DNA of 64,000 nt from Rhodocyclaceae bacterium (GCA_027310465.1 DAIDAU010000514.1:270-64269); one strand, 5' to 3'. Positions 11,490 to 42,469 are shown, counted from the stretch's first letter. Numbers and translations: made by a program. The notes: generated by a model from the letters alone, not told the origin.

Positions 11490-11565
11490 TGGGTAGTAGC
11501 TCAGACGGTAGAGCACGCGACTGTTAATCGCGGTGTCGCTGGTTCGAGCCCAGCCTTCCCAGCCA
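11490..11565 (+). tRNA. tRNA-Asn (anticodon GTT), CCA encoded
   Basis: Hand-folded cloverleaf. Acceptor TGGGTAG/CTTCCCA has one T:T mismatch at 5:68. D arm GCTC-AGACGGTA-GAGC, anticodon arm CGCGA-CTGTTAA-TCGCG, T arm GCTGG-TTCGAGC-CCAGC. U1-A72 and G73 as in bacterial tRNA-Asn. Confidence 0.85.
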
Positions 11566-19668: not shown

Positions 19669-20160
19669 ATGCCGGATACTCCCGACATCCCCGAGAGACA
19701 GGTCGGTCCGACGCCGCTCGCGCAACGAAAGGGGCGCAGGCGTAGGCGCACCACCAAGAACGCGGACACCTCGCCGGCGAACATCCGTTTCCGCGAGCGC
19801 GTCAAGGAAGCGCTCGAATACCGCAAGCTGGGCTACACGTTCCAGGAAATTGCGGACGAGATGAAGTTCGACGTCTCCTATGCCTATCGCCTCGTTAAGT
19901 GGGGCATGGACCAGATCACGGCAGAGCCTGCCGAGGATCTGAAAAAGATGCAGTCGATGCGGCTCGAGGCCATGATGACGGGCGTCATGGACAAGGCGAT
20001 CGCCGGCGACGCCGAGGCCACCCAGACCTGCCTCAACGTCATGGAGATGTTCAACAAGCTCCATGGCCTGCTCGCAGCGCAGAAGCTCGAGCACTCCGGA
20101 GAAGTGCAGGGCGGCGGCAACACCGTCTTCATCATCTCCGAAGCCGATGCCAAGCTCTAA
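19669..20160 (+). CDS. terS: terminase small subunit (HTH-containing)
   Basis: Sits immediately upstream of and overlapping TerL; KLGYTFQEIADEMKFDVSYAYRLV helix-turn-helix. Confidence 0.65.
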   Translation: MPDTPDIPERQVGPTPLAQRKGRRRRRTTKNADTSPANIRFRERVKEALEYRKLGYTFQEIADEMKFDVSYAYRLVKWGMDQITAEPAEDLKKMQSMRLEAMMTGVMDKAIAGDAEATQTCLNVMEMFNKLHGLLAAQKLEHSGEVQGGGNTVFIISEADAKL

Positions 20161-21796
20161 TCGCCCGAAGCGGCCGCGCAGACAGTTCCCGAAGAACGCT
20201 TCCCCCGCCATCGCGGTCGAACAGTCTCCCGCTGCCGTTGGCCACAACAACGGCCCGCACATCTCGACCTGGGGCGAGAGGGGGCCGAACCCGGCCCAGA
20301 TCCCTGCGACCGAGCTGCTCGGCTCGCACCGCCACGTCTGCCTCGTCGGCGGCGCCCGCTCCGGCAAGACCACCACCATCGTGCGCGCCATCGTGATGCG
20401 CGCGCTGCGCTTTCCGAACTCACGCCACGTGATCCTGCGCTTCCGCGCGATCCACGCCGACGCCTCGATCGCGCTCGACACCATGCCGAAGGTGCTGCGC
20501 AACTTCTTCCCCGGCCAGCGCTACAAGCACATCAAGTCGCCGCACAACCTGTTCCGCTTCCCCAACGGCAGCGAGATATGGATCGGCGGCCTCGACGACG
20601 AGCGGCGCGCCGACAAGATCCTCGGCGCCGAATACGCCACGATCTTCCTCAACGAGTGCAGCCAGATCAGCTGGTACTCGGCCAAGCTCGTCATGAGCCG
20701 CCTCGCGCAGGTGATCGAGGGCTGCGCGCAGCGCTTCTGGTGCGACATCAACCCGGTCGGCAAGAGCCACTGGACCAACCGCCTGTTCGGCGACAAGATC
20801 GACCCGGACGATCGCAAGGCGGTGGCGGACCCCGAGAACTACGCTCGGATGTTCGTCAACCCCAAGGACAACCAGCAGAACCTCGACAAGGGTTATTTCG
20901 ACTGGCTGTCGAAACAGAGCGGCAACTACCGCAAGCGCTTCTACGAGGGCCAGTATATCGACGAGGTCACCGGCGCGCTCTGGACGATCGACCTGATCGA
21001 GCAGATGCGTCTGCGGCCAGGCGACGAGCCGGCCGAGTTCGCCCGCACCGTCATCGCGATCGACCCGTCCGGTGCCGGCGAGCAGGGCGACAAGTCCGAC
21101 ATCGAGATGAAGCCGCGCAACGACGAGATCGGCATCATCGTCGCCTCGCTCGGCAATGATCAGCGCGCTTACCTGCGCGCCGACGTCTCGCTGGTCGGCA
21201 GCCCCGAGGAATGGGGCAGGCGCGCGGTCGCCGCCTTCTATCAGTTCGGCGCCGACCACATCATCGCCGAGGGCAATTTCGGCGGCGACATGGTCGCCTA
21301 CGTGATCCGGTCGATCGACCCCAACGTGCCGGTCCGCATCGTCCGTGCCAGCCAGGGCAAGCACATCCGCGCCGAGCCGATCTCGACGCTCTACACCAAC
21401 GATGCCGTGCGCCATGTCGGCGAGTTCAATGAGCTCGAGGACCAGCTCTGTGCTTTCACAACGCTCGGCTATGGCGGCCCGAAATCGCCGGATCGCGCCG
21501 ATGCGTGGATCTGGGCGGTGAACGACCTCTGCCTCGGCTCCGGGGCGAGCAACTGGCTCGAATATTACCGCCGTCTCGCCGAGGCTGCCGGAAACGAGGG
21601 CACGCCAGATCCGCAGCACGGCTACGAGATCACGCCACCGGCCGCGAAGGGCCATCGCGTGCTGGTGCCTGAAGGCGTCGGCTCGCTCTATCTGATCGAC
21701 GGCACGCACATGCTCGTCCCGGCAGACCGTATCGTCACGGTCTCTCCGGAAGACGCGGCCGCCTTCGGACGGCGCGGCTGGCAGGCCGTCACCTGA
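20147..21796 (+). CDS. terL: terminase large subunit
   Basis: Walker A VGGARSGKT, Walker B-like TIFLNECSQ, 549 aa; start ATG 20147 chosen inside the 577-aa track ORF. Confidence 0.9.
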   Translation: MPSSNRPKRPRRQFPKNASPAIAVEQSPAAVGHNNGPHISTWGERGPNPAQIPATELLGSHRHVCLVGGARSGKTTTIVRAIVMRALRFPNSRHVILRFRAIHADASIALDTMPKVLRNFFPGQRYKHIKSPHNLFRFPNGSEIWIGGLDDERRADKILGAEYATIFLNECSQISWYSAKLVMSRLAQVIEGCAQRFWCDINPVGKSHWTNRLFGDKIDPDDRKAVADPENYARMFVNPKDNQQNLDKGYFDWLSKQSGNYRKRFYEGQYIDEVTGALWTIDLIEQMRLRPGDEPAEFARTVIAIDPSGAGEQGDKSDIEMKPRNDEIGIIVASLGNDQRAYLRADVSLVGSPEEWGRRAVAAFYQFGADHIIAEGNFGGDMVAYVIRSIDPNVPVRIVRASQGKHIRAEPISTLYTNDAVRHVGEFNELEDQLCAFTTLGYGGPKSPDRADAWIWAVNDLCLGSGASNWLEYYRRLAEAAGNEGTPDPQHGYEITPPAAKGHRVLVPEGVGSLYLIDGTHMLVPADRIVTVSPEDAAAFGRRGWQAVT

Positions 21797-21822: not shown

Positions 21823-22482
21823 ATGCGTTCCTTCATGACGGTGCTGATGGCGATCCTGCTCGGAGCCGCAGCCTATTTCGGCATCACCCATGTCAGGGCG
21901 AGCTACGCGGCCGCGCCGAAGATGGCCGACGCCATGGTCTACGTCCGCATGAACGACAACGAGCATGGCAGCGGCGTCCACATCGGCGGCGGCTACGTCG
22001 TCACCGCGGCCCATGTCGCCGACGAGGTCTCGGAGCTTCCCAAGCTCCTGGCCGGCAAGGTCGCGCCGAAGCCTGCGCTCAAGGTCATCGACACCCTGTC
22101 CAAGGAGCATCGCGTCGAGGTGCTCTGGGTCAACCACACCTACGACATCGCGCTGCTCAAGATCGACAACCCCGGGACCGTCGCCTCGCGCCGGATCTCC
22201 TGCAGCAGCCTCAATGTCGGCCAGCGCCTGTCGTTCGACGGCAACCCGCTCAACCTCCGCAACATCACGATGTGGGGCAAGGTCGCCAGCACCGCGCCGA
22301 CCGAGATCGACCCGTGGAAGTCGGTGGCCGTGATTTCCGGCCAGCTCGTTCCCGGCATGAGCGGCGGCCCGGCCTACAATTCATCGGGTGACGTTGCCGG
22401 CATCAATGTCGGCATCGCCACCGGCTATGCGCTGAGCTTCATCGTGCCCAGCTCCACCGTCTGCCGCCTCCTGGCGCGCTGA
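21823..22482 (+). CDS. membrane-anchored trypsin-like (S1/DegP-type) serine protease
   Basis: N-terminal helix; catalytic triad contexts TAAHV, DIALLKI, GMSGGP. Confidence 0.8.
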   Translation: MRSFMTVLMAILLGAAAYFGITHVRASYAAAPKMADAMVYVRMNDNEHGSGVHIGGGYVVTAAHVADEVSELPKLLAGKVAPKPALKVIDTLSKEHRVEVLWVNHTYDIALLKIDNPGTVASRRISCSSLNVGQRLSFDGNPLNLRNITMWGKVASTAPTEIDPWKSVAVISGQLVPGMSGGPAYNSSGDVAGINVGIATGYALSFIVPSSTVCRLLAR

Positions 22483-22508: not shown

Positions 22509-24073
22509 TTGACCACTGTCAATATGACGCCGCCGGCTGATGGATCGCGCAACAACGTCGCCGTGAACGGCCGTACCTATGTCGGCAAGGTCGGCGTCAA
22601 CCAGCAGGTCCCCTCGTTCGACGCGCCGCTCCTCGAGGCCAATGGCTGGACCCGTGTCGCGACCGACGTCGCCAATGTCGGTCATACCGCCTACGGCCAG
22701 GACAACCAGCAGAACCTCGACAAGGGTTATTTCGACTGGCTGTCGAAACAGAGCGGCAACTACCGCAAGCGCTTCTACGAGGGCCAGTATATCGACGAGG
22801 TCACCGGCGCGCTCTGGACGATCGACCTGATCAGGCTTCGGCGCGACCTTGCCGGCCAGGAGCTTGGGAAGCTCCGAGACCTCGTCGGCGACATGGGCCG
22901 CGGTGACGACGTAGCCGCCGCCGATGTGGACGCCGCTGCCACGCGACCTCCGACGGCACGCTGACCAACGTCTCGCTGCTGTGCTCGGGTGGCGCGCTGA
23001 CCTCGGCCGCGATCAACAACGTCGCCTGGTATGGCGGCATTCCCTCGCCGATCAACACGCTCTACATCGCGATGCCGGTCACCAGCGTGCTGCCGCAGAC
23101 CACCGGCAATATCGGCGGCTCGTTCGCCGACCAGAGCTCCTGGGCCAGCGCCTTCGAGGTCGAGACCGACGCGCCCAACATCCAGTTCGGGCTCTTCACC
23201 GACAACGTCAAGAAGATCATGTTCCAGGTCGACGGCCAGTATGTCGACTTCACCGGCTCGACCGGTCCGGGCGCATCCGCCGACACCTATTTCAAGCTCG
23301 CCTTCGCCAGCGCCGGCATCCGCCGCATTCGCGTGCTGGTGCCGACCCATCCGTCCGGCGGCCCGGCGCTGATCAAGACCATCCGCACCGCGCCGCTCTA
23401 CAGCTTCTGGAAGCCGTGCCAGCGCGACGTGATCCGCGTCGGCTGGTCTGGCGACAGCTATTCGGAAGGCACCAACGGGGCAGGGACGGTCTACCCGATC
23501 CCGAACGCGAGCTGGCCGGTGATGACCTGCGAGCTGCTCGGCTTCCGCGACTGCCGCCAGCTCGCCGTCGGCGCGACCGGCTACCTGTCCGACGATGGCG
23601 GCCTGCGCTCCAAGATGCGCGACCAGATCCCGCGCTGGGCGGCGCAGGGCCCGTTCGACCTGCTGGTGTTCGCGCACGGCTACAACGACAGCTCGTTCTC
23701 GGCGAGCGCCATCACCGCCGAGGTGCTGTACGACCTGCAGCTCGTCCGCGCCAACTATCCGACCACCCCGATCGTCGTGCATGGCTGTCAGGCCGGCAAT
23801 TCCGGCCCCGGCGCCAGCCAGATCGCAACCGAGAACGCGATCGCGGCGGCCGTGGCCCAGTTCGCCGATCAGTTCGCGGTGTTCATGCCGGTCTCGACCG
23901 ACATCCCGACCTGGCTCAACGGCACCGGCTATTCCGGCGCCACCAACGCCAGCGGCAATTCCGACATCTATGTCGACCCGGACCACACCCACGCGACCCA
24001 GTCCGGCTACCAGTACCTCTCCTACCGCTCGGCGCGCGCCATCCGCAACGCGCTCGCCAGCATGATCAACTGA
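22509..24073 (+). pseudogene. virion fibre or spike-like protein with C-terminal SGNH/GDSL esterase, split by a 242-bp patch
   Basis: N-terminus is a paralog of the genes at 27036 and 29131 (VNGRxY...ANGW). C-terminal ORF 23072-24073 has GDSYSEG and DPDHTH blocks. The two halves are in different frames and rejoin in frame if 22699-22940 is removed. Confidence 0.8.
22699..22941 (+). repeat. chimeric patch: direct copy of terL 20865-20998 fused to inverted copy of protease 21966-22074
   Basis: Compared base by base by eye: 134/134 identical (direct) and 109/109 identical (reverse complement), abutting with no spacer. Confidence 0.9.
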
Positions 24074-24880: not shown

Positions 24881-26527
24881 GTGGCCAATTCGCCCGACGA
24901 GGATCTTGCGAAGATCGCGACCGCGCGCGGCGAGGCCCGCGCCATGCGTGATCTATCGCCGTACGACGTCCGCATGTCCTATGCCGGCACGCCGGTCAAG
25001 CCGAACGTCAACTTCTCCTATACGGGCGCGGACTGGATGGGTCCGCTCACCCCGATGCAGCCGGTGGCGCCTCCGCAAGTCGCCGGCCGCGTCCTCGACT
25101 ACGTCCCCGGCTACAACCTCACCACCCAGCCGCGCTACGCCGAGCCGGTCACGTTCGGGACGCTGCGCGCGCTTGCCGACGCCTATGATCCGCTGCGCCT
25201 CGTGATCGAGCGCCGCAAGGACCAGATGTGCCGGCTGCCGTGGACGATCCGCGCCAAGCACGACGAGCCCGGCAGGAAGCGCCCCTCGGCGAAGGATCTG
25301 CCCAAGCAGGTGCAGAACCGCATTCGGGACATCACCGAGTTCTTCAAGAAGCCGGACCAGGAGAACACCTTCCGCGGCTGGATGCGCTCGCTGCTCGAGG
25401 ACGTGCTCGTGATCGACGCACCCTCGATGTATTGCCAGCGCAACCGCGGCGGCGACCTGATCGGCCTCAACGTCATCGACGGCGCGCTGATCAAGCGCGT
25501 GATCGACGACTGGGGCCGTACCCCGCAGCCGATCCCGTTCGAGGGATCGTTCATGTGGAACGGCGCCGAGATCACCGAGCAGAACCATCAGGCCTACGGC
25601 TTCAAGATGGTGCCGGGCTTTGCGGCCGCGCACATGCTGCCGCGGGGCACGCCGGTCCCGCGCGCCGTCATGCTGCCGCCGGCCTATCAGCAGATCCTCA
25701 AGGGCCTGCCGGCCGTCAACTACACGACGTGGGACCTGTATTATCGCCCGCTCAACAAGCGGCCGAACCGCATCTACGGCTTCTCGCCGGTCGAGCAGGT
25801 CATCAGCACGGTCAACATCGCGATCCGCAGGGCCTATCACCAGCTCGAATATTATCGCGAGGGCAACACGCCGGAGGGCTTCTATTCGCTCCCGGAGGAC
25901 TGGACGCCGGACCAGATCCAGAAGTTCCAGGACTACTGGGACAACCTGATGTCTGGCCAGCTCGGCCAGCGGCGCCGCATCCGCTTCATGGCGGGCAAGG
26001 GCACCTTCACGCCGGTCCGCGAGCCGCCGCTCAAGAACGACTTCGACGAGTGGCTGATCCGCATCGTCTGCCTCGCCTTCTCCTATCCGCCGAACGCGCT
26101 GGTCGCGCTATCGAACCGCTCGATCGCCGACCAGCACGAGAAGCAGGCCGAGGAGGAGGGCATCGAGCCGCTCAAGCAGTGGGCCGAGGAGACCTTCAAC
26201 GAGATCATCGCCAACGATCTCGGCAGCGACGACCTCGAGTTCGCCTGGGTCGAAGAGAACGAGATCGACCAGGCCAAGCAGGCCGAGATCCTCACCACCT
26301 ACGCCAGCAAGGGCGCGCTCACCATCAACCAGATGCGCGAGCGCATGGGTGAGGAACCCGACTCCAACAAGGCGGCCAACATGCTCATGGTGCTGACGCC
26401 GGCCGGCTATGTGCCGATCGACGCGCTGCTCACCGAGAACAAGGTCGCCGATGCCAAGGCGATGGCGGCGGCCGTTCCTAAGCCGGAACCGTCAGTCGCG
26501 ACAACCAAAGAGTCCGAAGAGAGTTGA
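24881..26527 (+). CDS. portal protein
   Basis: 548 aa, position after terminase, acidic C-terminus; start uncertain (GTG 24881 or ATG 24943). Confidence 0.8.
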   Translation: MANSPDEDLAKIATARGEARAMRDLSPYDVRMSYAGTPVKPNVNFSYTGADWMGPLTPMQPVAPPQVAGRVLDYVPGYNLTTQPRYAEPVTFGTLRALADAYDPLRLVIERRKDQMCRLPWTIRAKHDEPGRKRPSAKDLPKQVQNRIRDITEFFKKPDQENTFRGWMRSLLEDVLVIDAPSMYCQRNRGGDLIGLNVIDGALIKRVIDDWGRTPQPIPFEGSFMWNGAEITEQNHQAYGFKMVPGFAAAHMLPRGTPVPRAVMLPPAYQQILKGLPAVNYTTWDLYYRPLNKRPNRIYGFSPVEQVISTVNIAIRRAYHQLEYYREGNTPEGFYSLPEDWTPDQIQKFQDYWDNLMSGQLGQRRRIRFMAGKGTFTPVREPPLKNDFDEWLIRIVCLAFSYPPNALVALSNRSIADQHEKQAEEEGIEPLKQWAEETFNEIIANDLGSDDLEFAWVEENEIDQAKQAEILTTYASKGALTINQMRERMGEEPDSNKAANMLMVLTPAGYVPIDALLTENKVADAKAMAAAVPKPEPSVATTKESEES

Positions 26528-27035: not shown

Positions 27036-28874
27036 ATGACCGTTATGCATCGGCTGATTGCGCCCGGTGGGTCCTCGCCCGTGACCGTCAATGGTCGGGT
27101 CTATAGTCCCTCTGCCGGATACGTCGATGCGCCGATCTTCGACTCCATGGTCCTGCAGGCCAATGGCTGGACGCTGCTGGCCGAAAGCGTCGCTGATGCG
27201 TCGCTCCCGAGCTTCTATCACGGCCAGCGCGTAGGCGAGCTCAGGTTTGATACGGATCTAGGTGAGGTGCTGGTCTGGGACGGGGCGCAGTGGCTCGATC
27301 CCCTTGTGGGAGCGAATGCCTGGTGGCCTCAATATACCGACATGGCTCTGCAATTCGGCAGTCGGTATCAGATCGGCGGCGTCGCCAAGAGCATTTCCGA
27401 CCTCACGTTCGCCCGCGCCAGCACCGCCGAAATCATTCTTGGCGGCTCCCGTCTGTCGTTCGCAAGCGGTCAGCCACGCATCAACAACGGCGCGATTTAT
27501 CTCGATAGCGTCGGCGCGACCAACCTGATTTCCAGCCCGGAGGACCACTCTACCGGATGGACCAATGCCCAGGTCACCGTCGGCGCGTTGGCGAACCTCG
27601 GCGGCGGGACAGTGCCGTTCTATCCCGTGATGGAAACGGCGGTAACGAACGTTCACACGCATCGCCGGACAATTACGACCGCTGCTAGTGCATTTGGTGG
27701 CTACGGCTATATCGCACCGACGCTGGGTCGAACCAAATTTCGGATTGAACTGACCGCGAACACAGGCAACGGTCTTCGGTTTGAGTTTGATCTTAGCGGT
27801 AGCGGCAGCGTGACGACTCCGATTGGAACGGGAGCCTCGCCAGCGACGGCGGTTTCTTACGGTGTGATCCAACTCGCCGATGGGGTGTGGCTCTGGTATA
27901 TCACCGGCACGTGGCCAGCCGACAGTCACACCTCGATCCAGTTCTGGATGTATCTGCGCGACGCGACCGGCGCCACGTCCTATGCTGGCGATATCGCAAT
28001 GGGAGCGTATTACGGGCCCGTGATGCTTAACGCGTCGTCGACGGTGGTGGACTATACGGCGAGCACGCGCGCTGCGGAGAGTCTTTCGATCCCCTTGACG
28101 GACGGCCCTTGGAGCTTCCGTGTCCGCAATGTCAGCGCCGACGAATGGCGCGGCATGGTGACGGTCTCTGGCGGGGCCTACGCGCTGACGCCGCCGAGCG
28201 GGTCGACGACCATCACGAAGGTCGAGGGCTACCAGCTCGACTACATGCACGATTTCACAGCAGACGCCGACACGCTGCCCGGTGACATCGGAACTGGTTG
28301 GGATTGTCGAGGCGGCTATGTGGCCAGCTACCCGCTCCCCACCAACACAAAGGTGCATATTAGCGGCGGCAAGGTCGTTACCGATGTTGGCGATGTTTGC
28401 TATATGACTCGCGTCTTTTCGAGCCCCGTTCACTACATGGAGCAAGTCGTTTCATGGACTGACACGGGAGGCGCCGGGATCGAGGCAACGGGCGCGATGT
28501 TTGCGACTGCCGATCCCAACATCATTAGCAATATGCCACATCATACTCTCTCCCGCGACGTGACGACGATCGGTCAGCGCATCAATGGCGGTACGATCTC
28601 GACACTGCAAGCTCTGAATTTCACGCCGAACCCGGCAGAGGATGGCACGCAATTCCCGTGGCGGCACTCCACAACAGCGAGCGGAACGGTCGTCGAGGCC
28701 GTCCGCAACAGCGAGCGGCAAACATATTCCGACGCGAGCTTGGGCGACGCTGGCGCAACGCCGGTTGGAACGCGGGCGGTTTGGGAGATTTACCAGCCAG
28801 ACGCGGCGGCCGGTAACACGCTGTCGGTCTACAAGGTGGCCGCACGCTATCGGCCTGTGATTTTGGCTGCGTAA
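27036..28874 (+). CDS. large fibre or receptor-binding-like protein with ANGW-type N-terminal module (612 aa)
   Basis: MTVMHRLIAPGGSSPVTVNGRVYSPSAGYVDAPIFDSMVLQANGW...GELRFDTDLGEVLVWDGAQW; lower G+C by eye; TTG 27030 is an alternative start. Confidence 0.75.
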   Translation: MTVMHRLIAPGGSSPVTVNGRVYSPSAGYVDAPIFDSMVLQANGWTLLAESVADASLPSFYHGQRVGELRFDTDLGEVLVWDGAQWLDPLVGANAWWPQYTDMALQFGSRYQIGGVAKSISDLTFARASTAEIILGGSRLSFASGQPRINNGAIYLDSVGATNLISSPEDHSTGWTNAQVTVGALANLGGGTVPFYPVMETAVTNVHTHRRTITTAASAFGGYGYIAPTLGRTKFRIELTANTGNGLRFEFDLSGSGSVTTPIGTGASPATAVSYGVIQLADGVWLWYITGTWPADSHTSIQFWMYLRDATGATSYAGDIAMGAYYGPVMLNASSTVVDYTASTRAAESLSIPLTDGPWSFRVRNVSADEWRGMVTVSGGAYALTPPSGSTTITKVEGYQLDYMHDFTADADTLPGDIGTGWDCRGGYVASYPLPTNTKVHISGGKVVTDVGDVCYMTRVFSSPVHYMEQVVSWTDTGGAGIEATGAMFATADPNIISNMPHHTLSRDVTTIGQRINGGTISTLQALNFTPNPAEDGTQFPWRHSTTASGTVVEAVRNSERQTYSDASLGDAGATPVGTRAVWEIYQPDAAAGNTLSVYKVAARYRPVILAA

Positions 28875-29677: not shown

Positions 29678-32600
29678 ATGTCCACCTTTGCAGCGCCCGC
29701 ATCGGCCACGTCGGGCCTGCAGGGCTATGACCTCGAAGGCGCCGATCGTCCGGCGCGTCGCAAGGTCAGTAAGGGCGAGGCGCGCTACGGCGACAACGCC
29801 AAGACCAAGCAGTGCATGTCCTGCGTGATGTTCCTTGCGCCGGACGCCTGCACCAAGGTCACGGGCAAGATCGCCCCGACCGGCCACTGCAAGTTCTACT
29901 ACGGCTTTGCCAACGTCGAGAAGGCGGCCGGTACCGCCTCGTTCCGCGCCGCCGGCATCGCGCTGGTCGAGAAGGAATACGGCAAGGCCCTGTTCATCAA
30001 GCGCAGCGGCGAGGGCGACCACGCCGGCGAATGGTGCTTCCCGGGCGGCGGCATCGACGGCAGCGAGACGCCGCTTGAGGCGGCGCTCCGCGAGGCCGTC
30101 GAGGAAGTCGGCTTCACGGTCCCGCACGATGGCGACCTCACCACGTTCGTTGCCACCATCGAGAGCAACGGCGTCGAGTTCACGACCTTCTTCCAGCGCG
30201 TCGACAAGGCGTTCGAGGCGAAGCTCAACGAGGAGCACACCGACTATCGCTGGGAGCCGCTGGAGAGGCCGCCGCAGCCGCTACATCCCGGCGTGCGCGC
30301 CGTGCTGCCGATGGTGGTCTCGGCCGCCACCGAGCTGACGCTCAAGAGCGCCAAGCGCACGCTCTACGTCAGGCGCCCGCTGATCAACGGCGAGCACCTC
30401 GTGAACTGGGCCAAGGCCAACGGGTTCGCGACCACGCTCCCCGACACCGACATGCATGTGACGATCGCCTACTCGAAAGAGGCGGTCGACTGGGACGCGG
30501 TACCGCGGTCATCACTCCCCATCCTACGGATCGAAGGCGGCGGCCGTGAGCTTGCCCGCTTCGGAAAAGACGGCGAAGCCGTCGTGCTCAAGCTCGAGTC
30601 TGAGGAGCTTGCCGCACGTCATCGGGAGATCAGGCAGGCCGGCGCCTCTTGGGACTGGCCCTACTACAAGCCGAACGTGACGCTGACTTATGCGGGCAAG
30701 GACATCTCGCTCGACGAGCTTGCGGCATTTGACGGCGTTCTCGAGTTCGGACCCGAAGCCTGGGCCGAAGTGCAAGACAACTACATGGACAGCGTCGTCG
30801 AAAAGCACGACGGAGTGGAGCAACATATGGACAATCTTTCCCTGTTTGTGCCGGTGCTGAAGGTCGACGCCAAGCAGCGCATGGTCTACGGCACGGCAGT
30901 CATCGAGCAGCCCGATCGCACCAACGAGATCTTCGACTACGCGAGCTCGAAGCCCGAGTTCGAGAAGTGGTCGAGCGAGGTCGAGAAGGCTTCCGGCGGC
31001 AAGAGCCTCGGCAACGTGCGCTCGATGCACGGCAAGGTCGCGGCCGGCAAGCTCACCGACATCGGCTTCGACGACGAGCGCAAGGCGATCGACGTCGCCG
31101 CCAAGGTGGTCGACGAGGAGGAGTGGCAGAAGGTCCAGGAGGGCGTCTACACCGGCTTCTCGATCGGCGGCCGCTATCTGAAGAAGTGGCAGGACGGCGC
31201 CTACAAGCGCTATACCGCAGCGCCCAGCGAGGTCTCGCTGGTCGATCTGCCGTGCGTCAAGGACGCCACCTTCGCGCTGATCAAGGCCGACGGCAGCGAG
31301 GAGCTGCGCAAGTTCGCCTCCACCGAGCAGGCTGTCGAGGACGGCAAGACCGAGCCCGTCGAGATCACCAACGACATGGTCGCCAAGCGCGCCGAGGAGC
31401 TGGCCAAGGTCTCCGGCAAGCCCTGGGCCGATCACGTCGACGAGGCGCGCGCCGCGCTCGAAGCCGAGGCCGTCGCCAAGGCGGCCGAGAAGGATGCCAA
31501 GCCTGCGGACGGCGAGGGCGAGGTCGCGAAGGGCACTGAGGCCGAGGTTATCGCTCCGGTGGTCACCGTCGATGTCGATGGCGCCAAGCTCGCCGACACG
31601 GTCGTCAAGGGCGTCGACGACGACATCGAGCAGGTCTGGACCTCAAAGCGCCTGCCCGGCAAATCGTTCGCCAAGAAGGCGGAGCTGCGCGAGGCACTGA
31701 ATGCGCTCGACATCGAGGAGGAGGCGGCGCGGAAAGCTGCGCCCGTGCTCGACCTGATCAAGGGCGTCACCAATCCCGAGGCCAAGGCCGATCCGAAGGC
31801 CGATCCGAAGGCCGAGGTCAAGCCGGAAGGCGAGGGCGCGGTCGAAAAGCGCGAGTTCTCCGACAGCGAGCGCGAGAAGGACGCGAAGAGTGGCGCAGCC
31901 GAAGCCGACGGCTCCTATCCGATCGAGAACGCGACGGACCTGGAGAACGCGGTCAAGGCCTACGGCCGCTCCAAGAACAAGGCCAAGACCAAGCGCCACA
32001 TCATCAAGCGCGCCCGCGCGCTCGGTCTCACCGACAAGCTCCCCGAGGGCTGGGTGAAGAAGGTGGCCGACGGCGAGGATCTCGCCAAGGGCGCCTCGCT
32101 CTATCTGGTCGCAGACCTCATGTATATGCTGAGCTGCGTCGAGAGCCTCGAGGAGCGCGCAGAGCTCTCCGCCGAGGTGTTCGGCGGCATCGACGTGCCC
32201 AAGGAGCTGACCGATCGCTTCGGCAGCCTGCTGGTCGATCTCGGCGACATCACCGCCGACATTCTCGACGTCGTGCTGGCCGACACCCGCAACGAGGAGG
32301 CCGCCGAGGCCGCTGCGAAGGCGGCTCCGGTCATGGACCTCTTCAAGCGCGGCGCCCGCAACTCGGCCTCCGACAAGGCCCTGATCAAGCAGGCGCACGA
32401 CATCCTGGTCACGCTCGACAAGGATGCCTGCGCCGGCGTCATGGGCAAGGCGGAAGGCGGTGATCTGGAGAAGGCGGCCAAGGTCGAGGCGCTCTCGTCC
32501 GAGGTCGAGCGTCTCACCGGCGCGCTGGAGATCGAGAAGTCCACCAACAGCAAGGCGCTGGCGGCGATCGCCGAAGGCGTCGAGGCGCTGAAGAGCCAGC

Positions 32601-32833
32601 TCGAAAAGGTCAACGGCGACAACAAGGAGCTGGCGGAGAAGCTGGAGAAGGCGCAGGGCGACCTGTCGGCGATCCGCTCGACGCCGCTGCCTGCGCCCGC
32701 CGGTCCCTACCGCGTGGTCGAGAAGACGGTCGATACCCTGACCGTCGGACAGACCGGCGAGGTTGACGAGACGACGCTGCGCAAGAACGCAGAGCTCGCC
32801 AAGCTCAACCGCACCATCTGGGCCGGTCGGTAA
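29678..32833 (+). CDS. 1051-aa polyvalent head protein: Cys cluster + Nudix + 2H-phosphoesterase-like + XkdF-type prohead protease-like + scaffold-like tail
   Basis: Nudix box GGGIDGSETPLEAALREAVEEVG (aa 123-145). MHVTIAYS (aa 259) and KPNVTLTY (aa 331). LFVPVLKVDAKQRMVYGTAVIEQPDRTNEIFDY...GNVRSMHG. Acidic, coiled-coil C-terminal half with DGSYPIENATDLENAVKAYGR. Confidence 0.75.
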   Translation: MSTFAAPASATSGLQGYDLEGADRPARRKVSKGEARYGDNAKTKQCMSCVMFLAPDACTKVTGKIAPTGHCKFYYGFANVEKAAGTASFRAAGIALVEKEYGKALFIKRSGEGDHAGEWCFPGGGIDGSETPLEAALREAVEEVGFTVPHDGDLTTFVATIESNGVEFTTFFQRVDKAFEAKLNEEHTDYRWEPLERPPQPLHPGVRAVLPMVVSAATELTLKSAKRTLYVRRPLINGEHLVNWAKANGFATTLPDTDMHVTIAYSKEAVDWDAVPRSSLPILRIEGGGRELARFGKDGEAVVLKLESEELAARHREIRQAGASWDWPYYKPNVTLTYAGKDISLDELAAFDGVLEFGPEAWAEVQDNYMDSVVEKHDGVEQHMDNLSLFVPVLKVDAKQRMVYGTAVIEQPDRTNEIFDYASSKPEFEKWSSEVEKASGGKSLGNVRSMHGKVAAGKLTDIGFDDERKAIDVAAKVVDEEEWQKVQEGVYTGFSIGGRYLKKWQDGAYKRYTAAPSEVSLVDLPCVKDATFALIKADGSEELRKFASTEQAVEDGKTEPVEITNDMVAKRAEELAKVSGKPWADHVDEARAALEAEAVAKAAEKDAKPADGEGEVAKGTEAEVIAPVVTVDVDGAKLADTVVKGVDDDIEQVWTSKRLPGKSFAKKAELREALNALDIEEEAARKAAPVLDLIKGVTNPEAKADPKADPKAEVKPEGEGAVEKREFSDSEREKDAKSGAAEADGSYPIENATDLENAVKAYGRSKNKAKTKRHIIKRARALGLTDKLPEGWVKKVADGEDLAKGASLYLVADLMYMLSCVESLEERAELSAEVFGGIDVPKELTDRFGSLLVDLGDITADILDVVLADTRNEEAAEAAAKAAPVMDLFKRGARNSASDKALIKQAHDILVTLDKDACAGVMGKAEGGDLEKAAKVEALSSEVERLTGALEIEKSTNSKALAAIAEGVEALKSQLEKVNGDNKELAEKLEKAQGDLSAIRSTPLPAPAGPYRVVEKTVDTLTVGQTGEVDETTLRKNAELAKLNRTIWAGR

Positions 32834-33216
32834 TGTCCGGCAACGACAAGCGCAACCTCCCCGACGACAGCGCGGGGAGGAAGCGCATGCCGATGGCGAG
32901 CGGCCTCCTGGATTACTTCCCGGATGCCCTCGCCGAGGTCGCCTTCGTCTCGTGGTTCGGCAACGAGAAGCACAATCCCGGCGAGCCGCTGCATCACGCC
33001 CGCGGCAAGTCGATGGACCATCCCGACTGCATCATGCGTCACATGACGCAGCGCGGCGGCTTCGACATCGTCGAGATCGCCGGGGTCCAGTACAAGATCC
33101 GCCACTCCGCCGCGATGGCGTGGCGTGCGCTCGCCCTCCTGCAGGAGGAGCTTGAGCAGGAACACGGTCTGCCTCTGCCGCGCGGTGCGCGGATCGAAGA
33201 GGCGACCAAGGCTTAA
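32833..33216 (+). CDS. dATP/dGTP diphosphohydrolase-domain-like (DUF5664-like) protein
   Basis: TAATG coupling; LLDYFPDALAEVAFVSWFGNEKHNPGEPLHH...HPDCIMRHM...HSAAMAWRALALLQ fits that family as I recall it. Confidence 0.5.
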   Translation: MSGNDKRNLPDDSAGRKRMPMASGLLDYFPDALAEVAFVSWFGNEKHNPGEPLHHARGKSMDHPDCIMRHMTQRGGFDIVEIAGVQYKIRHSAAMAWRALALLQEELEQEHGLPLPRGARIEEATKA

Positions 33217-33365: not shown

Positions 33366-34976
33366 ATGAACGCCATCGTGAAGGCGCGCGAGATCCAGTT
33401 CTCCGAAGTGCTGCCGCATGAGCTGCAGAAGAACTGGGCGCCGATCTACAACCAGATGGGCATGATCGACCGCCAGGCGGTCGCTGCCGAAGTCACCAAC
33501 TTCCTCGAAGCCGTGCGCAAGTCCCAGTCCCAGACGGACTTCATGCCCGACTTCCTGGCCAAGAGCACGTTCCAGCAGGCGGGTTCGGCCACCTCCGGCC
33601 TGACCTACTACGACCTCGAGCTCGGCGCCAAGTTCCTCTATCCCGTCCTGACGCCGCTGCGCAACGAGATCCCGCGCGTCTCCGGCAAGGGCGGCATTCA
33701 GGCGGCGTGGCGCGCCGTGACCGGCGTCAACACCTCCGGCCTGCGTATCGGCGTCTCCGCCGGTAACCGCGGTGGTGTGCAGGCGGTCTCGACCCAGGAC
33801 TATCTGGCGACCTACCGCGGCATCGGTCTGGAGACCAACGTCGACTTCGAGGCCGAGTATGCCGGCCGCGGCTTCGACGACATCCGCGCGATCGCGGCCA
33901 AGACCGGCCTCGAAGCGACGATGATCGGCGAGGAGATCCTGATCCTCGGCGGCCTCGGCTCCTACGGTCTCGGCACCACGCCGACCCCGTCGCTGGCCGC
34001 TGCCACCACGGGCGGCTCGCTCGCGACCGCGACCTATTCGGTCATCTGCGTGGCGCTGTCGCTCGACGGCTTCATCAACGGTTCGGTTGCCGGCGGCGTC
34101 CAGGCCTCCATCACCCGCACCAATGCGGACGGCTCGACCGACACCTTCGGTGGCGGCGCGGCCCAGAAGTCGACCAACGCCACCGTGGCCGTCACCGGCC
34201 CGAACGGCTCGGTCTCGGCCACCGTTACCGCCGTCCAGGGCGCGTGCGGTTACGCCTGGTTCTGGGGTGCGGCCGGCTCGGAAGTGCTCGGCGCGATCAC
34301 CTCGATCAACTCGGTGTCGATCACGGCGGCCGCGACCGGCACCCAGACCGCGGCGTCCATGCCGTCGGCTGACTGGTCGAAGAACGCGCTGGTGTTCGAC
34401 GGCCTGATCTACCAGGCTCTGGCGAGCGGCTCCAATGCCTACGTCGCCCTGCAGCCGACCGGCACCGCTGGCGTCGGCACCCCGCTGACCGCTGACGGCG
34501 CCGGTGGTGTCGTCGAGATCGACGCGGCGCTGCAGGACCGTTGGGACCGCTTCCGTCTGTCCCCGGACACCATCTGGGTGAACAGCCAGGAGGCCTCGAG
34601 CCTGTCGAAGAAGATCCTGCAGGGCAACAGCAATGCGGCCCAGCGCTTCGTCTTCCAGAGCGAGCGGGACAACATCGGCGGCGGCATCATGGTCCGCACC
34701 TATCTGAACAAGTTCAGCATGGGTGGTGCCAAGACGCTGGATATCCGTATCCACCCGAACCTGCCGCCCGGTACCATCCTGATGACCTCGCGCTCGCTGC
34801 CCTATCCGGTCAGCGGCGTGAACAACATCATCCAGATGCGCTACCGTCAGGACTACTACCAGATCGAGTGGCCGCTCCGCACCCGTAAGTACGAGTCGGG
34901 CGTCTACGCCGACGAGGTGCTGCAGCACTACTTCCCGCCGAGCATGTGCGTCATCAGCAACATCGCCAATGGCTAA
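33366..34976 (+). CDS. major capsid protein
   Basis: GGAGATAACGCG-ATG; 536 aa directly after the protease/scaffold gene; strong hairpin terminator downstream; start chosen inside the 573-aa track ORF. Confidence 0.8.
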   Translation: MNAIVKAREIQFSEVLPHELQKNWAPIYNQMGMIDRQAVAAEVTNFLEAVRKSQSQTDFMPDFLAKSTFQQAGSATSGLTYYDLELGAKFLYPVLTPLRNEIPRVSGKGGIQAAWRAVTGVNTSGLRIGVSAGNRGGVQAVSTQDYLATYRGIGLETNVDFEAEYAGRGFDDIRAIAAKTGLEATMIGEEILILGGLGSYGLGTTPTPSLAAATTGGSLATATYSVICVALSLDGFINGSVAGGVQASITRTNADGSTDTFGGGAAQKSTNATVAVTGPNGSVSATVTAVQGACGYAWFWGAAGSEVLGAITSINSVSITAAATGTQTAASMPSADWSKNALVFDGLIYQALASGSNAYVALQPTGTAGVGTPLTADGAGGVVEIDAALQDRWDRFRLSPDTIWVNSQEASSLSKKILQGNSNAAQRFVFQSERDNIGGGIMVRTYLNKFSMGGAKTLDIRIHPNLPPGTILMTSRSLPYPVSGVNNIIQMRYRQDYYQIEWPLRTRKYESGVYADEVLQHYFPPSMCVISNIANG

Positions 34977-38271: not shown

Positions 38272-40230
38272 ATGACCGGTAACGTCTTCCTCGACGGTCA
38301 GCAGAATCTCGCCGCGCTGACCGTCCCCGGCGTGTATGGCGATATCATTCTGCCGACCGGTATGATCCTCGGCACGCCGACCAACATCGAAGGCCTGGTC
38401 GGCGTCGCGAGCTGGGGTCCTCTCAACGCGCTGATCCCGGTGTCGAAGCCGATTGACGCGGCGACCTCGATCGGCAGCCCGGTGATCCGCAGCTACGACA
38501 TGGCGTCCTATGTCGCGGCGGCCTGCCAGGTCGGGCCCGCGGTCGGCTTCTTCTGCGTGCGCGTCTCCGACGGCACCGACGTCGCCGCCACGGTCTCGGT
38601 GCAGTCCGGCGCGATCACGCTGGCCGGCAAGTACACCGGCACGCTCGGCAACGGCATCACGTTCTCGATCCAGAACGGCTCGGCCAAGAACAGCTACATG
38701 GGCGTCGTCGCCTTCCCGGGCCTCGTCCCCGAGCAGTTCAACAACGTCGCCGGCCCGACCCCGGCGAGCGGCACCGCGACGTTCGCGGCCAATCCGGCCG
38801 CCAACGACACCCTGACGATCGCCGGTACCGCGATCACCTTTGTCGCCTCCGGCGCGACCGGCACCCAGGTCAACATCGGCTCCTCGCTGGCGGTCACGCT
38901 GTCGAACCTCTTGACCTTCCTGCAGGGCTCGACCGATGCCGGCCTCGTCAAATGCACCTACAGCGTCGCCGGCTCGGTGCTGACGATCACCGCCAACCAG
39001 TTCAACGGCACCGGCGCCAATGCCGGCACCGGCGGCAACTCGCTGACGCTCGCCAAGACCTCGACCGCGATCACGCTGTCCGGTGCGACCCTGTCTGGCG
39101 GCGTCGGTACCTGGCAGACGTTCTGGACCAACCTCGCCAACGCCATCAACAACGGCACGGCATATCACGGCCCCAGCCAGTTCGTGATTGCGACCGCGGG
39201 CACCTCGACCCTGGCGCCGACGCTGTCGACCACGCTGCAGCTCTCTGGCGGCACCGACGGCGCCTCCGGCGTCACCGATGCGACGCTGATGGGGCAGGAC
39301 GTCACCCCGCGCAAGGGCATGTACGCGCTGCGCGGCTCGAACTGCGACGGCTTCACGCTGTGCGACCTGTCGACCTCGGCGGACTACGCTGCGATCGCCT
39401 CGTTCGCGATCGGTGAGACCATGCTGCCGGTGTTCGCCACGACCTCGGGCGACACCACCGCAGATACGCTCTCGATCCGCATCAACTCCGGCATCGACAC
39501 GCCGTGGTTCTGGCTGATCAAGGGCGACTGGCCGACGTTCTACGACAGCTACAACCAGGTCTCGCGCCTGATCAACCCGTCGGCGTTCGGACTCGGCATC
39601 ATCGGCAACCTGTCGCCGCAGCAGTCGCCGCTCAACAAGCCGCTGCAGGGCATCTCCGCCACGCAGACGACGCAGCTCGGCCAGACCTATTCCGACACCG
39701 AGCTGTCGCAGATCAACACCGGCGGCATCGACGTCATCCTGGGGCCGAACTCCTCGCCGGGCGGCTACTACTTCTCGTTTGCCACGGGGCGCAACACCTC
39801 GTCCAACACCGCGGCGAACGGGATCGAGTACACCCGTATGACCAACTTCCTGATCCGCGCTGCGCAGAGCAAGGCGGCAGGATCGTTCGTCGGTCAGCTG
39901 CAGTCGATCCAGCCCGACGACGAGACGCGGGCCAAGGCCAAGGCGCTGTTCGACGGCTTCTCGGCGCAGCTCGCCTCCTCCGAGGTCGGTCTTGGCATCA
40001 ACGGGCAGGGCATGATCGACCGGCCCTGGTCGGTGCAGTGCGACCTCAACAACAACCCGCCCGACCTGCAGGCGAGGGGCTATCTGTTCCTGTACTGGAA
40101 GGTCCGCTACCTCAACGTGATCCGCTACTTCGTGGTCAAGTTCCAGGGCGGCGGCAACGTCACGGTCACGGTCCAGACCACGCAGCCCTCGCCGAGCCAG
40201 TTCGCTCAGAACGTCAACTCGTCGGTCTAA
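38272..40230 (+). CDS. contractile tail sheath protein
   Basis: 652 aa; N-terminal [11 protein letters not shown] and [13 protein letters not shown] motifs; followed by tube and chaperone genes. Confidence 0.85.
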
Positions 40231-40741
40231 GGTTGGCGAACTCGCCGTAATACGCAGTGGCGGCTTTCTCGTAAGCCGCCGCTGCCTCAGTCACGAGTTC
40301 AAACAATCCGAGATGGATACTCTTGCCATCCACTTGGATCTTCGCGCGCCAGCTCTTCGTGGCGGCATTCCAGTGGACGCCCTTATAGCCACTGGTGTTG
40401 TCCACCCTCTTGGCTTTGTTGGCATGGTTCTGTCCGCGCGTCGCGGGTCTGATGTTGCCCCACGAATTGTTGGAGCGCTTGCGATCACGATGGTCAACGT
40501 CCGCGGCGGGCCACTCACCGGTCACGATCAGATATGCCAATCGATGTGCCCGGTATTGGCGACCATCGATCATGATCACGACGTAGCCGTCTTTGAGTGT
40601 CCCGGCCTCAGTGCCGGCATCCCGAACATTCACCGCGCGACGCAGACCATCGCGCCACTTCCACGTGAAGCGACCGCTGATGGGATCGTAGTCGAGCATC
40701 GATAAAACCCGTTCCCGGGTGAGTTCTTCTGTGTCCGTCAT
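40214..40741 (-). CDS. HNH (HNH_3-type) + AP2-domain homing endonuclease
   Basis: [46 protein letters not shown], then [43 protein letters not shown]; low G+C; start uncertain (40741 or 40816). Confidence 0.8.
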
Positions 40742-40808
40742 GTGCGGATCATAGCAGAAAACGTCTTCAAATCCAGCCAAATAGGAGGCTACCATTCCAG
40801 TCAACGGC

Positions 40809-41231
40809 ATGAACACCGGCCAGGACTATTCGATCATGTTCTACGATGGCGCGAGCGGCACCATCGTCGACCTCGGCGACATCCAGAACGTGCGCAAGCA
40901 GGCGCTCAAGCACGACATCAAGTCGGCACCCTACAACAAGCTGCCGCGCTACGGCTACGTGCCGGACGGCTACCGCTTCCAGTTCACCATCACCCGCACC
41001 GGGCCTGCGCTCGAAGACTTCATGGTGCAGGCGGAGGCCAACTTCAATCAGGGCAAGGTGCAGAAGCCCGGGTTTCTCAACGAGACCATCACCAACCCCG
41101 ACGGCAGCGTCAGCCGCTACCAGTACACGCAGTTCGTGATCTTCCTCGACGATCACGGCGACATCAGCCGTGACAAGCCGGTCACGCTGAAGCTGGAGGG
41201 CATGGCGTCCAGCCGCGTCGCCATCGCCTGA
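40809..41231 (+). CDS. tail tube protein
   Basis: 140 aa, between the sheath and chaperone genes. Confidence 0.6.
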   Translation: MNTGQDYSIMFYDGASGTIVDLGDIQNVRKQALKHDIKSAPYNKLPRYGYVPDGYRFQFTITRTGPALEDFMVQAEANFNQGKVQKPGFLNETITNPDGSVSRYQYTQFVIFLDDHGDISRDKPVTLKLEGMASSRVAIA

Positions 41232-41664: not shown

Positions 41665-41843
41665 TCGAGGACTCCGTTTTCCGGCTGACCTGCTGGGCAA
41701 TTCAAAACGGAGTCCCGTTCGACGTGGCTCACTCCATGAGCGATGCGGAGCTGCTCGGCTATGCCATCAGCTTCGCCAAGCTCAAGAACGGCGACAAAAC
41801 CTGGGATTGGGATAGGATGAATTTTATTGATTCGCCCCAATGA
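41278..41843 (+). CDS. tail assembly chaperone, -1 frameshift product (G-GT / E-E' analogue)
   Basis: A shift at 41655-41661 opens a 62-codon -1 frame (KKLVEDSVFRLTCWAIQNGVPFDVAHSMSDAELLGYAISFAKLKNG...) ending at TGA 41841-41843. Confidence 0.6.
41655..41715 (+). promoter_or_regulatory. programmed -1 frameshift signal
   Basis: Heptamer A AAA AAC in correct phase (41655-41661), 7-nt spacer, perfect 12-bp stem GGACTCCGTTTT (41669-41680) / AAAACGGAGTCC (41704-41715). Confidence 0.7.
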
Positions 41844-42469
41844 CCACCACACTCCCTAGAGCATACAGCGGTCCTACGGTATCGCGTTCTGAGGCGCTTC
41901 AGACTGGCTTGAAGCGCTTCTTCGATGGTAGGCCGTGCCCGCACGGGCACGTGGCCGAGCGTCTAGTGTCGAATTACACCTGCATGGAATGTACTCGGCT
42001 GAGGAAATTCTCTCTACCGGAGGACCAGATCGAAAAGAAGCGCCAGTATATGAGGGACTGGCGTCGCAAAAACCCTGAAGTGGCTAGGGTCCGTCGCAGG
42101 GAATACATTCTCAACAATCGAGAGAAGCACTATGCTGCAATCATCGCGTGGCATAAGGCAAACCCTGATCGCCTGCGTGAAATCAAATTGTCCGCTAAGC
42201 ATAGAAGGCGGGCCAGGATCGCACAGTGGGATGGATGCCACTACACTACGGAAGAGCTTGTGGCGCTTTGGGAGTCTGTCCCGCATCGTTGTGCAGCCTG
42301 CAGCTGCGACATTACGGTAGAGACCCGACACATCGACCACATCGTCCCGTTGGCGCGTGGCGGATCAAATTCCATCCGTAACATCCAGTTCCTTTGCGCT
42401 CACTGCAACAGGGTCAAGAATGCGCGTGATCCTGCGGTCTTCATGCGCGAGCTTGGGTTCCTAATCTGA
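41840..42469 (+). CDS. HNH endonuclease (paralog 2 of 3)
   Basis: HIDHIVPLARGGSNSIRNIQFLCAHCNRVKNARDP; Arg-rich repeats upstream; ATGA-coupled to the end of the frameshift ORF; low G+C. Confidence 0.85.
   Translation: MTTTLPRAYSGPTVSRSEALQTGLKRFFDGRPCPHGHVAERLVSNYTCMECTRLRKFSLPEDQIEKKRQYMRDWRRKNPEVARVRRREYILNNREKHYAAIIAWHKANPDRLREIKLSAKHRRRARIAQWDGCHYTTEELVALWESVPHRCAACSCDITVETRHIDHIVPLARGGSNSIRNIQFLCAHCNRVKNARDPAVFMRELGFLI

Follow-up and report, generated by a model that had tools for sequence, protein, structure and literature searches.

Why should the gene for a phage head assembly factor open with several hundred codons of enzyme-like domains? The question is raised by a single open reading frame (ORF) of 1051 codons in a stretch of 64,000 nucleotides (nt) from a Rhodocyclaceae bacterium (GCA_027310465.1, DAIDAU010000514.1:270-64269; the whole of this stretch is called the window below). 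The ORF joins four N-terminal parts, including a Nudix hydrolase domain and an Acb1-type phosphoesterase domain, to a prohead protease and a scaffold-like tail. The analysis reported here suggests, with a probability of roughly 0.55, that its product is a polyvalent head protein that loads anti-signalling enzymes into the capsid, from which they would be delivered together with the DNA.

Architecture of the fusion protein

An uninterrupted ORF between the portal-side genes and the capsid gene had been proposed in a sequence-only reading of this DNA. It is confirmed at 29678-32833 (+), where all 1051 codons are open, with the portal gene at 24881-26527 on one side and a probable major capsid gene at 33366-34976 on the other. 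The five-part anatomy that the same reading had assigned to the protein also survives profile and fold tests in all its domain calls, two of which (the 2H domain and the Cys cluster) could be sharpened. The same architecture is seen in more than 20 homologues with identities of 43-60%, and it is therefore no chance pattern. The parts of the gene are as follows:

29678..32833, + strand: whole ORF, encoding the cargo-protease-scaffold polyprotein (ATG start, 1051 amino acids (aa), 113.7 kDa, isoelectric point (pI) 5.0)
29681..29740, + strand: leader motif STFAAPASATSGLQGYDLEG (aa 2-21), shared almost unchanged by about 36 of 120 family members
29756..29905, + strand: HiPIP-type domain, aa 27-76, with C46, C49, C58 and C71 as predicted [4Fe-4S] ligands
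29942..30322, + strand: Nudix hydrolase domain, aa 89-215 (PF00293, E=2.5e-18), with the Nudix box at aa 124-146 (nt 30047-30115)
30344..30802, + strand: Acb1-type 2H phosphoesterase domain, aa 223-375 (PF23474; Foldseek match to 7t26; predicted local distance difference test score (pLDDT) >90)
30812..30829, + strand: candidate internal ribosome-binding site GGAGTGGAG (30812-30820) with in-frame ATG (30827-30829, Met384)
30830..31312, + strand: XkdF/assemblin-like prohead serine protease domain, aa 385-545 (Pfam, PHROG, tblastn, fold and invariant residues)
31313..31849, + strand: acidic Ala/Glu-rich linker, partly helical and partly disordered, into which ChaB, SH3-like and collagen inserts fall in homologues
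31850..32053, + strand: conserved basic block REFS..ER.KDA..G.A..DGSYPIEN..DL.NA..AYGR...KRHI..RA.ALG...LPEGW, aa 725-792
32054..32830, + strand: helical C-terminal region resembling a scaffold, aa 793-1051, with one helix of 72 residues

The Nudix and 2H assignments both withstand profile searches, with scores well clear of the Pfam cut-offs. For the former, PF00293 matches aa 90-210 with 66.8 bits (cut-off 21.1), and the Nudix box fits the consensus GX5EX7REUXEEXGU exactly (G124-x5-E130-x7-R138-E139-A-V-E142-E143-V-G145-F146). The canonical box claimed earlier is thus real, and only its numbering had been one residue off. The box is also canonical in 18 of 18 homologues, and the Nudix module of the window protein looks fully competent. 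Among PHROGs, the domain matches MutT/NUDIX and also a portal family (phrog_15528), and the NCBIfam equivalogs all fall far under their cut-offs, the best being MutT (35.9 vs 97.9).

The claimed 2H-type domain with its two motifs is borne out and belongs specifically to the Acb1 family. PF23474 matches aa 227-370 with 120.4 bits (cut-off 27, E=6.5e-35), covering positions 1-142 of the 144 in the profile. When the AlphaFold2 (AF2) model was searched with Foldseek, Acb1 of phage FBB1 (7t26) came out on top (E=1.5e-9, template modelling (TM) score normalised to the target 0.74), followed by a Burkholderia phage phosphodiesterase (9q2y). A literature search on the latter, from phage BCSR5, found nothing. 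The best PDB match by sequence is the portal of cyanophage Pam3 (8hds, residues 466-612, E=1.6e-15), and the region carries the PHROG name 'RNA ligase' (phrog_755).

The core of the protein, from aa 384 onward, resembles a protease-scaffold fusion. An XkdF-like protease had been placed at about aa 385-540, and this assignment, borderline in Pfam, is backed by several other lines of evidence: a head maturation protease family in PHROGs (phrog_9427, E=6.7e-8), tblastn matches to annotated capsid maturation proteases at 1e-7, and 54 fold matches at E<=1e-3 in BFVD, a library of predicted viral structures, most of them labelled prohead protease, COG3740 or XkdF (of the compact matches, the best has TM 0.67 and a root-mean-square deviation (rmsd) of 2.8 A). 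All 87 family sequences compared keep both His451 (nt 31028-31030) and Ser495 (nt 31160-31162), and by analogy with HK97 gp4 and T4 gp21, where His and Ser follow each other in the same order and spacing, the two are a candidate catalytic pair. The acidic scaffold-like tail described earlier, with its YPIEN...AYGR motif, is likewise upheld: aa 546-1051 have a pI of 4.8 and are modelled as long helices, one of 72 residues, and the REFS...PEGW block (aa 725-792) is conserved across the family. This basic block also occurs as small stand-alone phage proteins (BFVD A0A8S5VKP5 and A0A8S5SAG3; 46-48% identity over 71 columns, rmsd ~1 A), and it is similar in style to the DUF6582 inserts of other family members.

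A (V/T)EK motif recurs ahead of the leader, where Acb1 ends and ahead of the REFS block, and it was considered as a mark of protease cleavage. It was dropped because stand-alone Acb1 proteins natively end in '...EK', so that the motif belongs to the Acb1 module.

A HiPIP-type domain and a conserved leader

The N-terminal Cys cluster (aa 46-71) noted earlier does contain C46, C49, C58 and C71, and it can now be described more precisely. A profile built from the alignment of 14 such modules taken from family members matches the small HiPIP PioC in the PDB (6xyv) with E=8.9e-12, positions 2-52 aligning with 3-53 of 54, and with all four Cys, a conserved Tyr and a G-x-C in register. Further HiPIPs are matched at E=3e-5 and 2e-3, and the NCBIfam model for Iro, an iron oxidase that is a HiPIP too, gives E=3e-6, which lies below the model cut-off. 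With Pfam HIPIP (PF01355), 3 of the 14 modules match weakly (best E=0.006) and the window module gives no match, and the AF2 model is poor over this region (pLDDT <50). By its profile the Cys cluster is a HiPIP domain; because of the weak Pfam match and the poor model, binding of a [4Fe-4S] cluster is only inferred. The domain is internal in the polyprotein, and the conserved leader ahead of it is not a twin-arginine (Tat) signal.

The leader peptide itself follows the consensus (E/D)K-STFxAPxSATSGLQ(G/N)YDLEG, often with a run of Arg/Lys coming next, and has no database match. It also occurs in a number of relatives (P0017, P0020-P0022, P0028-P0034, P0081, P0084, P0086 and P0096), where its placement varies: it may stand at the N-terminus, behind Acb1, behind an uncharacterised domain of ~170 aa, or behind the protease domain. 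The idea that the leader serves as a capsid-targeting signal common to other proteins was rejected, as a six-frame scan of the window finds it in the target ORF only. The ~170-aa N-terminal module (MRDDERFTPADQLP...HE.AE.I.M..G..YD...PPG.AHY.ANG.EK), which precedes the leader in several members (the module is present in P0017, P0020, P0028, P0029, P0032, P0033, P0038 and P0047), carries no annotation and is not part of the window protein.

Modular evolution and a probable nested start

By a full-length search, 267 relatives were collected, and the best 120 were parsed with profiles made from the window protein's own segments. About 84 of these have a length of 590-700 aa and no part ahead of the protease domain, so that ~70% of the parsed family consists of the protease-scaffold core only. 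The other members (~36) have N-terminal additions in many combinations, such as leader only, leader-HiPIP, leader-HiPIP-Nudix, leader-Nudix-Acb1, leader-Acb1-Nudix, Acb1-leader, Acb1 alone, and two HiPIPs with Acb1. Both orders of the two enzymes are found (Nudix-Acb1 in 5 members and Acb1-Nudix in 7), which implies repeated shuffling. Other members carry ChaB, SH3-like, collagen or DUF6582 inserts in the linker. The nearest stand-alone Acb1 proteins (P0121 and P0123) end in '...VTEK' or '...IKEK', exactly where the fusions run on, as expected if an upstream acb1 gene had been fused by loss of its stop codon. Database labels already attached to relatives read 'NUDIX domain-containing protein' or 'Anti-CBASS protein Acb1'.

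At the junction between additions and core, the window gene has features of a second translation start. The second GGAG of GGAGTGGAG lies 6 nt upstream of the ATG of Met384, and the annotated start of the gene has a far weaker Shine-Dalgarno sequence than this internal ATG. A Met occupies the Met384 position in 42 of the 44 members with an internal protease domain, against a background Met frequency of 2.3%, and core-only relatives start exactly there, with M-x-x-L-x-L-F-(V/I)-P. DNA was obtained for five fused genes, and in four of these GGAG, AGGA or GAGG is found 4-16 nt upstream of the internal ATG; the same motifs precede only 5 of the 71 other in-frame ATGs of those genes (Fisher p=5e-4). 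Initiation at Met384 would probably give a cargo-free protease-scaffold of 668 aa and 71.7 kDa, and the 1051-aa form would then be a minority species that carries the cargo.

The substituted histidine of the Acb1 module

The first 2H motif of the window protein is H260-V-T262 (nt 30455-30463) and the second is N333-V-T335 (nt 30674-30682), with the Asn codon AAC at 30674-30676. The earlier statement that Asn replaces the second catalytic His is correct, since N333 aligns with that His in FBB1 Acb1. In the family set the second His is kept in 26 of 27 Acb1 domains, the exception being the window protein, and in the wider Acb1-type family both His residues are invariant in 78 of 78 further representatives. 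Thus all 104 other domains keep the second His and the change is unique among 105. The caution expressed earlier about altered or lost activity was justified, and the case for it is stronger than had been put. In Acb1, acid-base catalysis is the task of the HxT/HxT tetrad, and the variants H44A, in which the first His is substituted, and H44A/H113A serve as catalytically inactive controls (PMC9117128); in the window module this tetrad is incomplete.

Identity to relatives is similar for the two enzymes (53-64% for the Acb1 module and 50-64% for the Nudix module), so that the former is not decaying faster than the latter and shows no visible decay. The protein was also found on a second contig (Logan SRR5161788) with zero differences in the gene; as this contig represents the same genome, the base call at Asn333 has no independent support.

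Acb1-type domains and their partners inside the head

To see how the Acb1-type domain is distributed beyond this family, 1.84 billion representative proteins were scanned exhaustively with HMMER, which yielded 2037 at E<=1e-3, against 7 small proteins from a word-indexed homologue search with the same domain. The 140 nearest new representatives have a median length of 541 aa, and only 20 of them are 250 aa or shorter. In 78 of these, the Pfam partners include portal families (18), MuF (8), DUF2213 (7), Peptidase_S78 (6) and Peptidase_S78_2 (6), besides ADP-ribosyltransferases (8), Nudix (4), Zeta toxin (2) and ChaB (1). With profiles built here, the protease being scored with one jackhmmer-extended profile, a prohead protease domain was found C-terminal to Acb1 in 21 of the 140 representatives, and three others among the 140 combine Acb1 with the HiPIP module. 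In cultured phages the domain sits at the C-terminus of the portal, as in Pam3 gp3 (8hds), Pseudomonas phage phiPSA1, Rhizobium RHph phages and Synechococcus phages. The accessible part of the Pam3 structure paper does not mention this Acb1-like C-terminal region.

Versions of the modules encoded by separate genes, which the sequence-only reading had proposed to look for, do exist: stand-alone Acb1 genes were found in head modules. One locus has the order terminase, portal with a PF03496 domain, second PF03496 gene, Acb1 and MuF, and another the order MuF, Sequestin and Acb1 (L006 1677-4229). The first locus (L004 4993-8705) comes from a Phycisphaerales metagenome-assembled genome (GCA_043955495.1) and, PF03496 being an ADP-ribosyltransferase toxin family, resembles an effector cluster inside a head module. 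In L006 a 58-aa gene of the Sequestin family, a family of immune-signal sponges, adjoins Acb1, so that a nuclease and a sponge stand side by side.

The common denominator of Acb1-type domains is that they are attached or adjacent to proteins that end up inside the capsid. The earlier proposal that the fusion would target the enzymes to the capsid interior therefore has comparative backing from the portal, MuF and protease partners in the 78 representatives and from the stand-alone genes in head modules; the packaging that it implied stays a prediction.

A model of cargo loading and delivery

On this reading, the core (aa 384-1051), comprising a prohead serine protease and a helical scaffold, is the factor that normally serves head assembly and maturation in this phage group, and the leader, HiPIP, Nudix and Acb1-type nuclease have accreted in front of it. 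In the proposed mechanism, the scaffold part would co-assemble with the capsid protein, and the long form would take its N-terminal enzymes into the procapsid interior in this way, with the cargo-free Met384 form probably making up the bulk of the scaffold. After cleavage of the polyprotein by the protease, the enzyme modules might remain inside the head, pass into the next host along with the DNA and hydrolyse nucleotide immune signals or related nucleotides there before phage gene expression; Acb1-type domains would act on the cyclic oligonucleotides of CBASS (the antiphage signalling system based on these oligonucleotides). The analysis shows the identities of the domains, their modularity, the position of the gene, the unique change from His to Asn and the conserved internal Shine-Dalgarno sequence with its ATG; packaging, processing, delivery, substrates and the anti-defence role are what we infer in this scheme.

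The window protein has at least two effector-type domains in one polypeptide that is encoded among the late genes of a portal-terminase phage, as polyvalent proteins do. For that class, 2H domains fused to MuF or portal have been predicted to be packaged and to degrade nucleotide signals, and assemblin-like peptidases have already been described at the C-termini (PMC5512222). A virion ejection protein has been reported to inhibit a CBASS effector (bioRxiv 10.1101/2025.07.23.666291), which offers a precedent for virion-borne anti-CBASS activity.

Several observations weigh against delivery of an active anti-signalling cargo by this protein. T4 Acb1 is a free protein, and no report of its packaging in virions came up in our searches. 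The Acb1 module of the window probably has no nuclease activity and would at most bind a ligand, because Asn333 is unique among the 105 domains; since the module lacks a catalytic His, an anti-CBASS function is not to be assumed here. The nearest folds of the Nudix model are BdRppH, MutT2 and Ap4A hydrolases rather than ADP-ribose pyrophosphatases, the literature searched contained no anti-defence Nudix of such a kind and no Nudix anti-Thoeris enzyme, and a link of this domain to any known immune signal is not established. A HiPIP with a [4Fe-4S] cluster would lose it on unfolding through the tail, which argues against ejection of at least this module. On the side of the carrier, the Peptidase_S78_2 (XkdF) match at aa 394-499 reaches 24.3 bits against a cut-off of 24, and no match was significant when the protease-scaffold model was compared with PDB folds, the human cytomegalovirus protease being a weak match (probability 0.47).

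Alternative explanations

Among the alternatives, the one that survives best, albeit as an unlikely account, is that the enzymes are a late cytoplasmic antidote: they would act in the cell that produces the virions, where many CBASS systems sense prohead protease activity and protease-scaffold proteins late in infection; fusion to this trigger, or to other late head proteins, would ensure the same timing and amounts, and packaging would be incidental. Prohead proteases have recently been found to activate CD-NTases by cleavage and thereby to trigger CBASS (bioRxiv 10.64898/2026.03.04.709575, Hobbs and Kranzusch 2026 preprint), and in T1-like phages the mutations that allow escape from CBASS fall in the fused prohead protease-scaffold protein (bioRxiv 10.1101/2023.05.21.541620). 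The occurrence of Acb1 upstream of a protease in 21 of 140 representatives, together with the S78 and S78_2 partners in Pfam (6 members each), agrees with such a coupling, and the HiPIP cluster is easier to square with action in the producer cell. However, portal and MuF fusions outnumber protease fusions, and neither portal nor MuF is known as a trigger, which suggests that what the fusions share is a place in the capsid rather than the protease as such. In the portal fusions the Acb1 domain lies at the C-terminal end, and this end faces the capsid interior in solved portals. The same proteins also bear toxin-like effectors (ADP-ribosyltransferases and Zeta toxin) that are typical of injected polyvalent proteins, and the cargo, once assembled, would be enclosed in procapsids. 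The antidote and the delivered cargo can coexist.

A bolder version of the trigger-antidote coupling, which we regard as a long shot, is that each protease-scaffold trigger molecule carries its own signal-destroying or signal-binding module in the form of the Acb1-type domain and perhaps also the Nudix domain, prohead protease activity being what many CBASS CD-NTases sense. The N333 Acb1 would then be a high-copy stoichiometric sponge, and the oxygen-tolerant HiPIP an unrecognised iron-sulfur component of the head.

It also seems improbable that the enzymes have a housekeeping role, with the Nudix domain and the MazZ-N-like gene downstream sanitising or reshaping nucleotide pools or RNA 5' ends, the 2H domain healing or processing RNA ends, and the fusion being an expression convenience. 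The Nudix fold is indeed nearest to RppH, MutT and Ap4A hydrolases, the 2H region has the 'RNA ligase' label of phrog_755, and the MazZ-N-like gene is kept directly downstream in the window, where start and stop overlap, and in two relatives. Yet the Acb1 match of 120 bits is far above all else, whereas LigT-type models match weakly and in some relatives only. None of the loci examined showed an RNA ligase partner, and Iyer et al. likewise found none (PMC5512222). Repeated fusion to portal, MuF and prohead proteases would not be expected of housekeeping enzymes.

Least probable of all is that the N-terminal 383 residues are a dispensable relic with the Met384 form as the functional product and the change to Asn as an initial visible sign of loss, or that codon 333 contains a sequencing or assembly error: the uniqueness of Asn333 among 105 domains, the strong Shine-Dalgarno sequence at the internal ATG beside a weak one at the annotated start, and a base call seen in one genome only would fit, but the 1149-nt extension is intact, neither a stop nor a frameshift occurs in it, the Nudix box that it encodes is perfect, and its Acb1 divergence (53-64% identity) is no greater than that of Nudix (50-64%).

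Gene neighbourhood

The genes on either side of the ORF place it in the head module, with the following features:

24881..26527, + strand: portal protein gene (PF04860 E=2e-18; phrog_2662 E=7e-70)
32833..33216, + strand: MazZ-N-like NTP diphosphohydrolase-type gene, 127 aa (PF18909 E=1.3e-9)
33366..34976, + strand: probable major capsid protein gene (27% identity to the major capsid protein of Arthrobacter phage Sonali over 85% of the length)

Four relatives (three metagenomic ones and a prophage of Bradyrhizobium erythrophlei, LT670817.1, about 3.09-3.11 Mb) have the gene order terminase-portal-fusion-capsid as well, and Brevundimonas phages show the same synteny around the protease gene. The capsid assignment is supported by relatives that carry a major capsid protein annotation and by synteny in the related loci L007-L010. 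The stop codon TAA of the target ORF overlaps the ATG of the next gene (TAATG). This gene, whose product resembles the N-terminal domain of the dATP/dGTP diphosphohydrolase MazZ, has the same position in L007 and L010, so that a second nucleotide hydrolase is wedged between the protease-scaffold and capsid genes.

Other genes of the region were also noted. A 612-aa ORF between portal and target (27036-28874, +) has no match in Pfam, PHROGs, NCBIfam or the PDB, and relatives have a GDSL-lipase-like protein at or near its place. In the window, a GDSL lipase/acylhydrolase-like gene (PF13472), which also matches a head decoration PHROG, lies at 23333-24073 (+), and larger GDSL-type versions of 476 and 711 aa are found in the head modules of L007 and L010. 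A second protease of the head/packaging module is encoded by a trypsin-like serine peptidase gene (21823-22482, +; PF13365 E=8e-17, PHROG 'protease') that lies directly 3' of the large terminase gene (20063-21796). The structural region is interrupted by an HNH endonuclease gene at 41840-42469 (+; Pfam HNH_5/HNH), and the adjoining ORF at 40214-40816 (-) has its counterpart, in the identical contig L002, in a gene call annotated as HNH_3/AP2. A tRNA-Asn(GTT) gene is located at 11490-11565 (+).

Comparison with known systems

The general concept of such proteins was already published in 2017 under the name "polyvalent proteins" (Iyer, Burroughs, Anand, de Souza and Aravind, PMC5512222). The window protein shares with them several effector-type domains, a place among late packaging genes, a 2H domain fused to a head protein, an assemblin-like peptidase downstream of the effectors, and the prediction of packaging, injection and degradation of nucleotide signals. 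It differs in that a full scaffold follows the peptidase, which makes the phage's own essential protease-scaffold the carrier, and in that the array adds a HiPIP, a Nudix+Acb1 pair and a conserved, putative nested start. In the literature searched, the protease-scaffold as a carrier, the HiPIP module, the leader peptide and the nested start were not found described, nor were Acb1+Nudix fusions or the pair in both orders, and HiPIP domains in phages were not found.

The individual parts also have known counterparts. The 2H module has the family profile, the fold, the first HxT and the 2H core of Acb1 (the T4 gene 57B product, and FBB1 7t26/7t27), but free Acb1 is an enzyme of ~150 aa, whereas here it is a predicted domain of a 1051-aa head protein with the second catalytic His changed to Asn. 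In the portal-Acb1 fusions (Pam3 gp3 8hds, phiPSA1, RHph and Synechococcus phages) a domain of 44-46% identity is likewise attached to a head-interior protein. There the carrier is the portal, the domain is C-terminal with both His intact, and it is presumably fixed at 12 copies per virion, in contrast to a releasable scaffold-linked cargo. The HiPIP module matches the 54-aa PioC over its full length and shares with PioC and other small HiPIPs (6xyv, 3h31, 1isu) the C-x2-C-x8-C-x12-C spacing, the conserved Tyr and Gly-x-Cys; PioC, however, is a Tat-exported periplasmic electron carrier, and here the domain, with a predicted cluster, is internal to a cytoplasmic phage polyprotein.

The prohead protease-scaffold fusions of T1-like Drexlerviridae have the same N-terminal serine protease followed by a helical scaffold and the same position between portal and capsid. 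The nested or fused protease-scaffolds of lambda (C/Nu3) and P2 (gpO) are further comparators, and an in-frame nested start is likely here as well. Unlike these, the window protein has a 383-aa enzyme array ahead, its protease is of the XkdF type (S78_2), and its nested product is deduced from the Shine-Dalgarno sequence and ATG. T4 Alt, the T4 internal proteins IPI-III and P1 Dar are loaded via the scaffold or core, processed by the prohead protease and delivered with the DNA. They are encoded by separate genes and have short targeting sequences, whereas here the cargo is covalently part of the protease-scaffold. Capsid-targeted injected proteins of this kind have been summarised (PMC5512222).

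Implications

For a specialist in phage counter-defence these results hold no surprise, and they are timely for the link between proteases and CBASS: the protease fusions tie in with the recent finding that prohead proteases trigger this system. The HiPIP domain and the conserved leader are new and unexplained parts of phage head proteins. With regard to annotation, the 'NUDIX domain-containing protein' of Bradyrhizobium prophages is a head maturation protease/scaffold. If the cargo is packaged, these phages would pre-load enzymes against nucleotide immune signalling on their own essential protease-scaffold, and counter-defence would act ahead of any phage gene expression. The Acb1-type domain occurs in about 2,000 representative clusters, and most of the closest are portal, MuF or prohead protease fusions; therefore, most natural "Acb1" may be virion-associated, unlike the free T4 enzyme.

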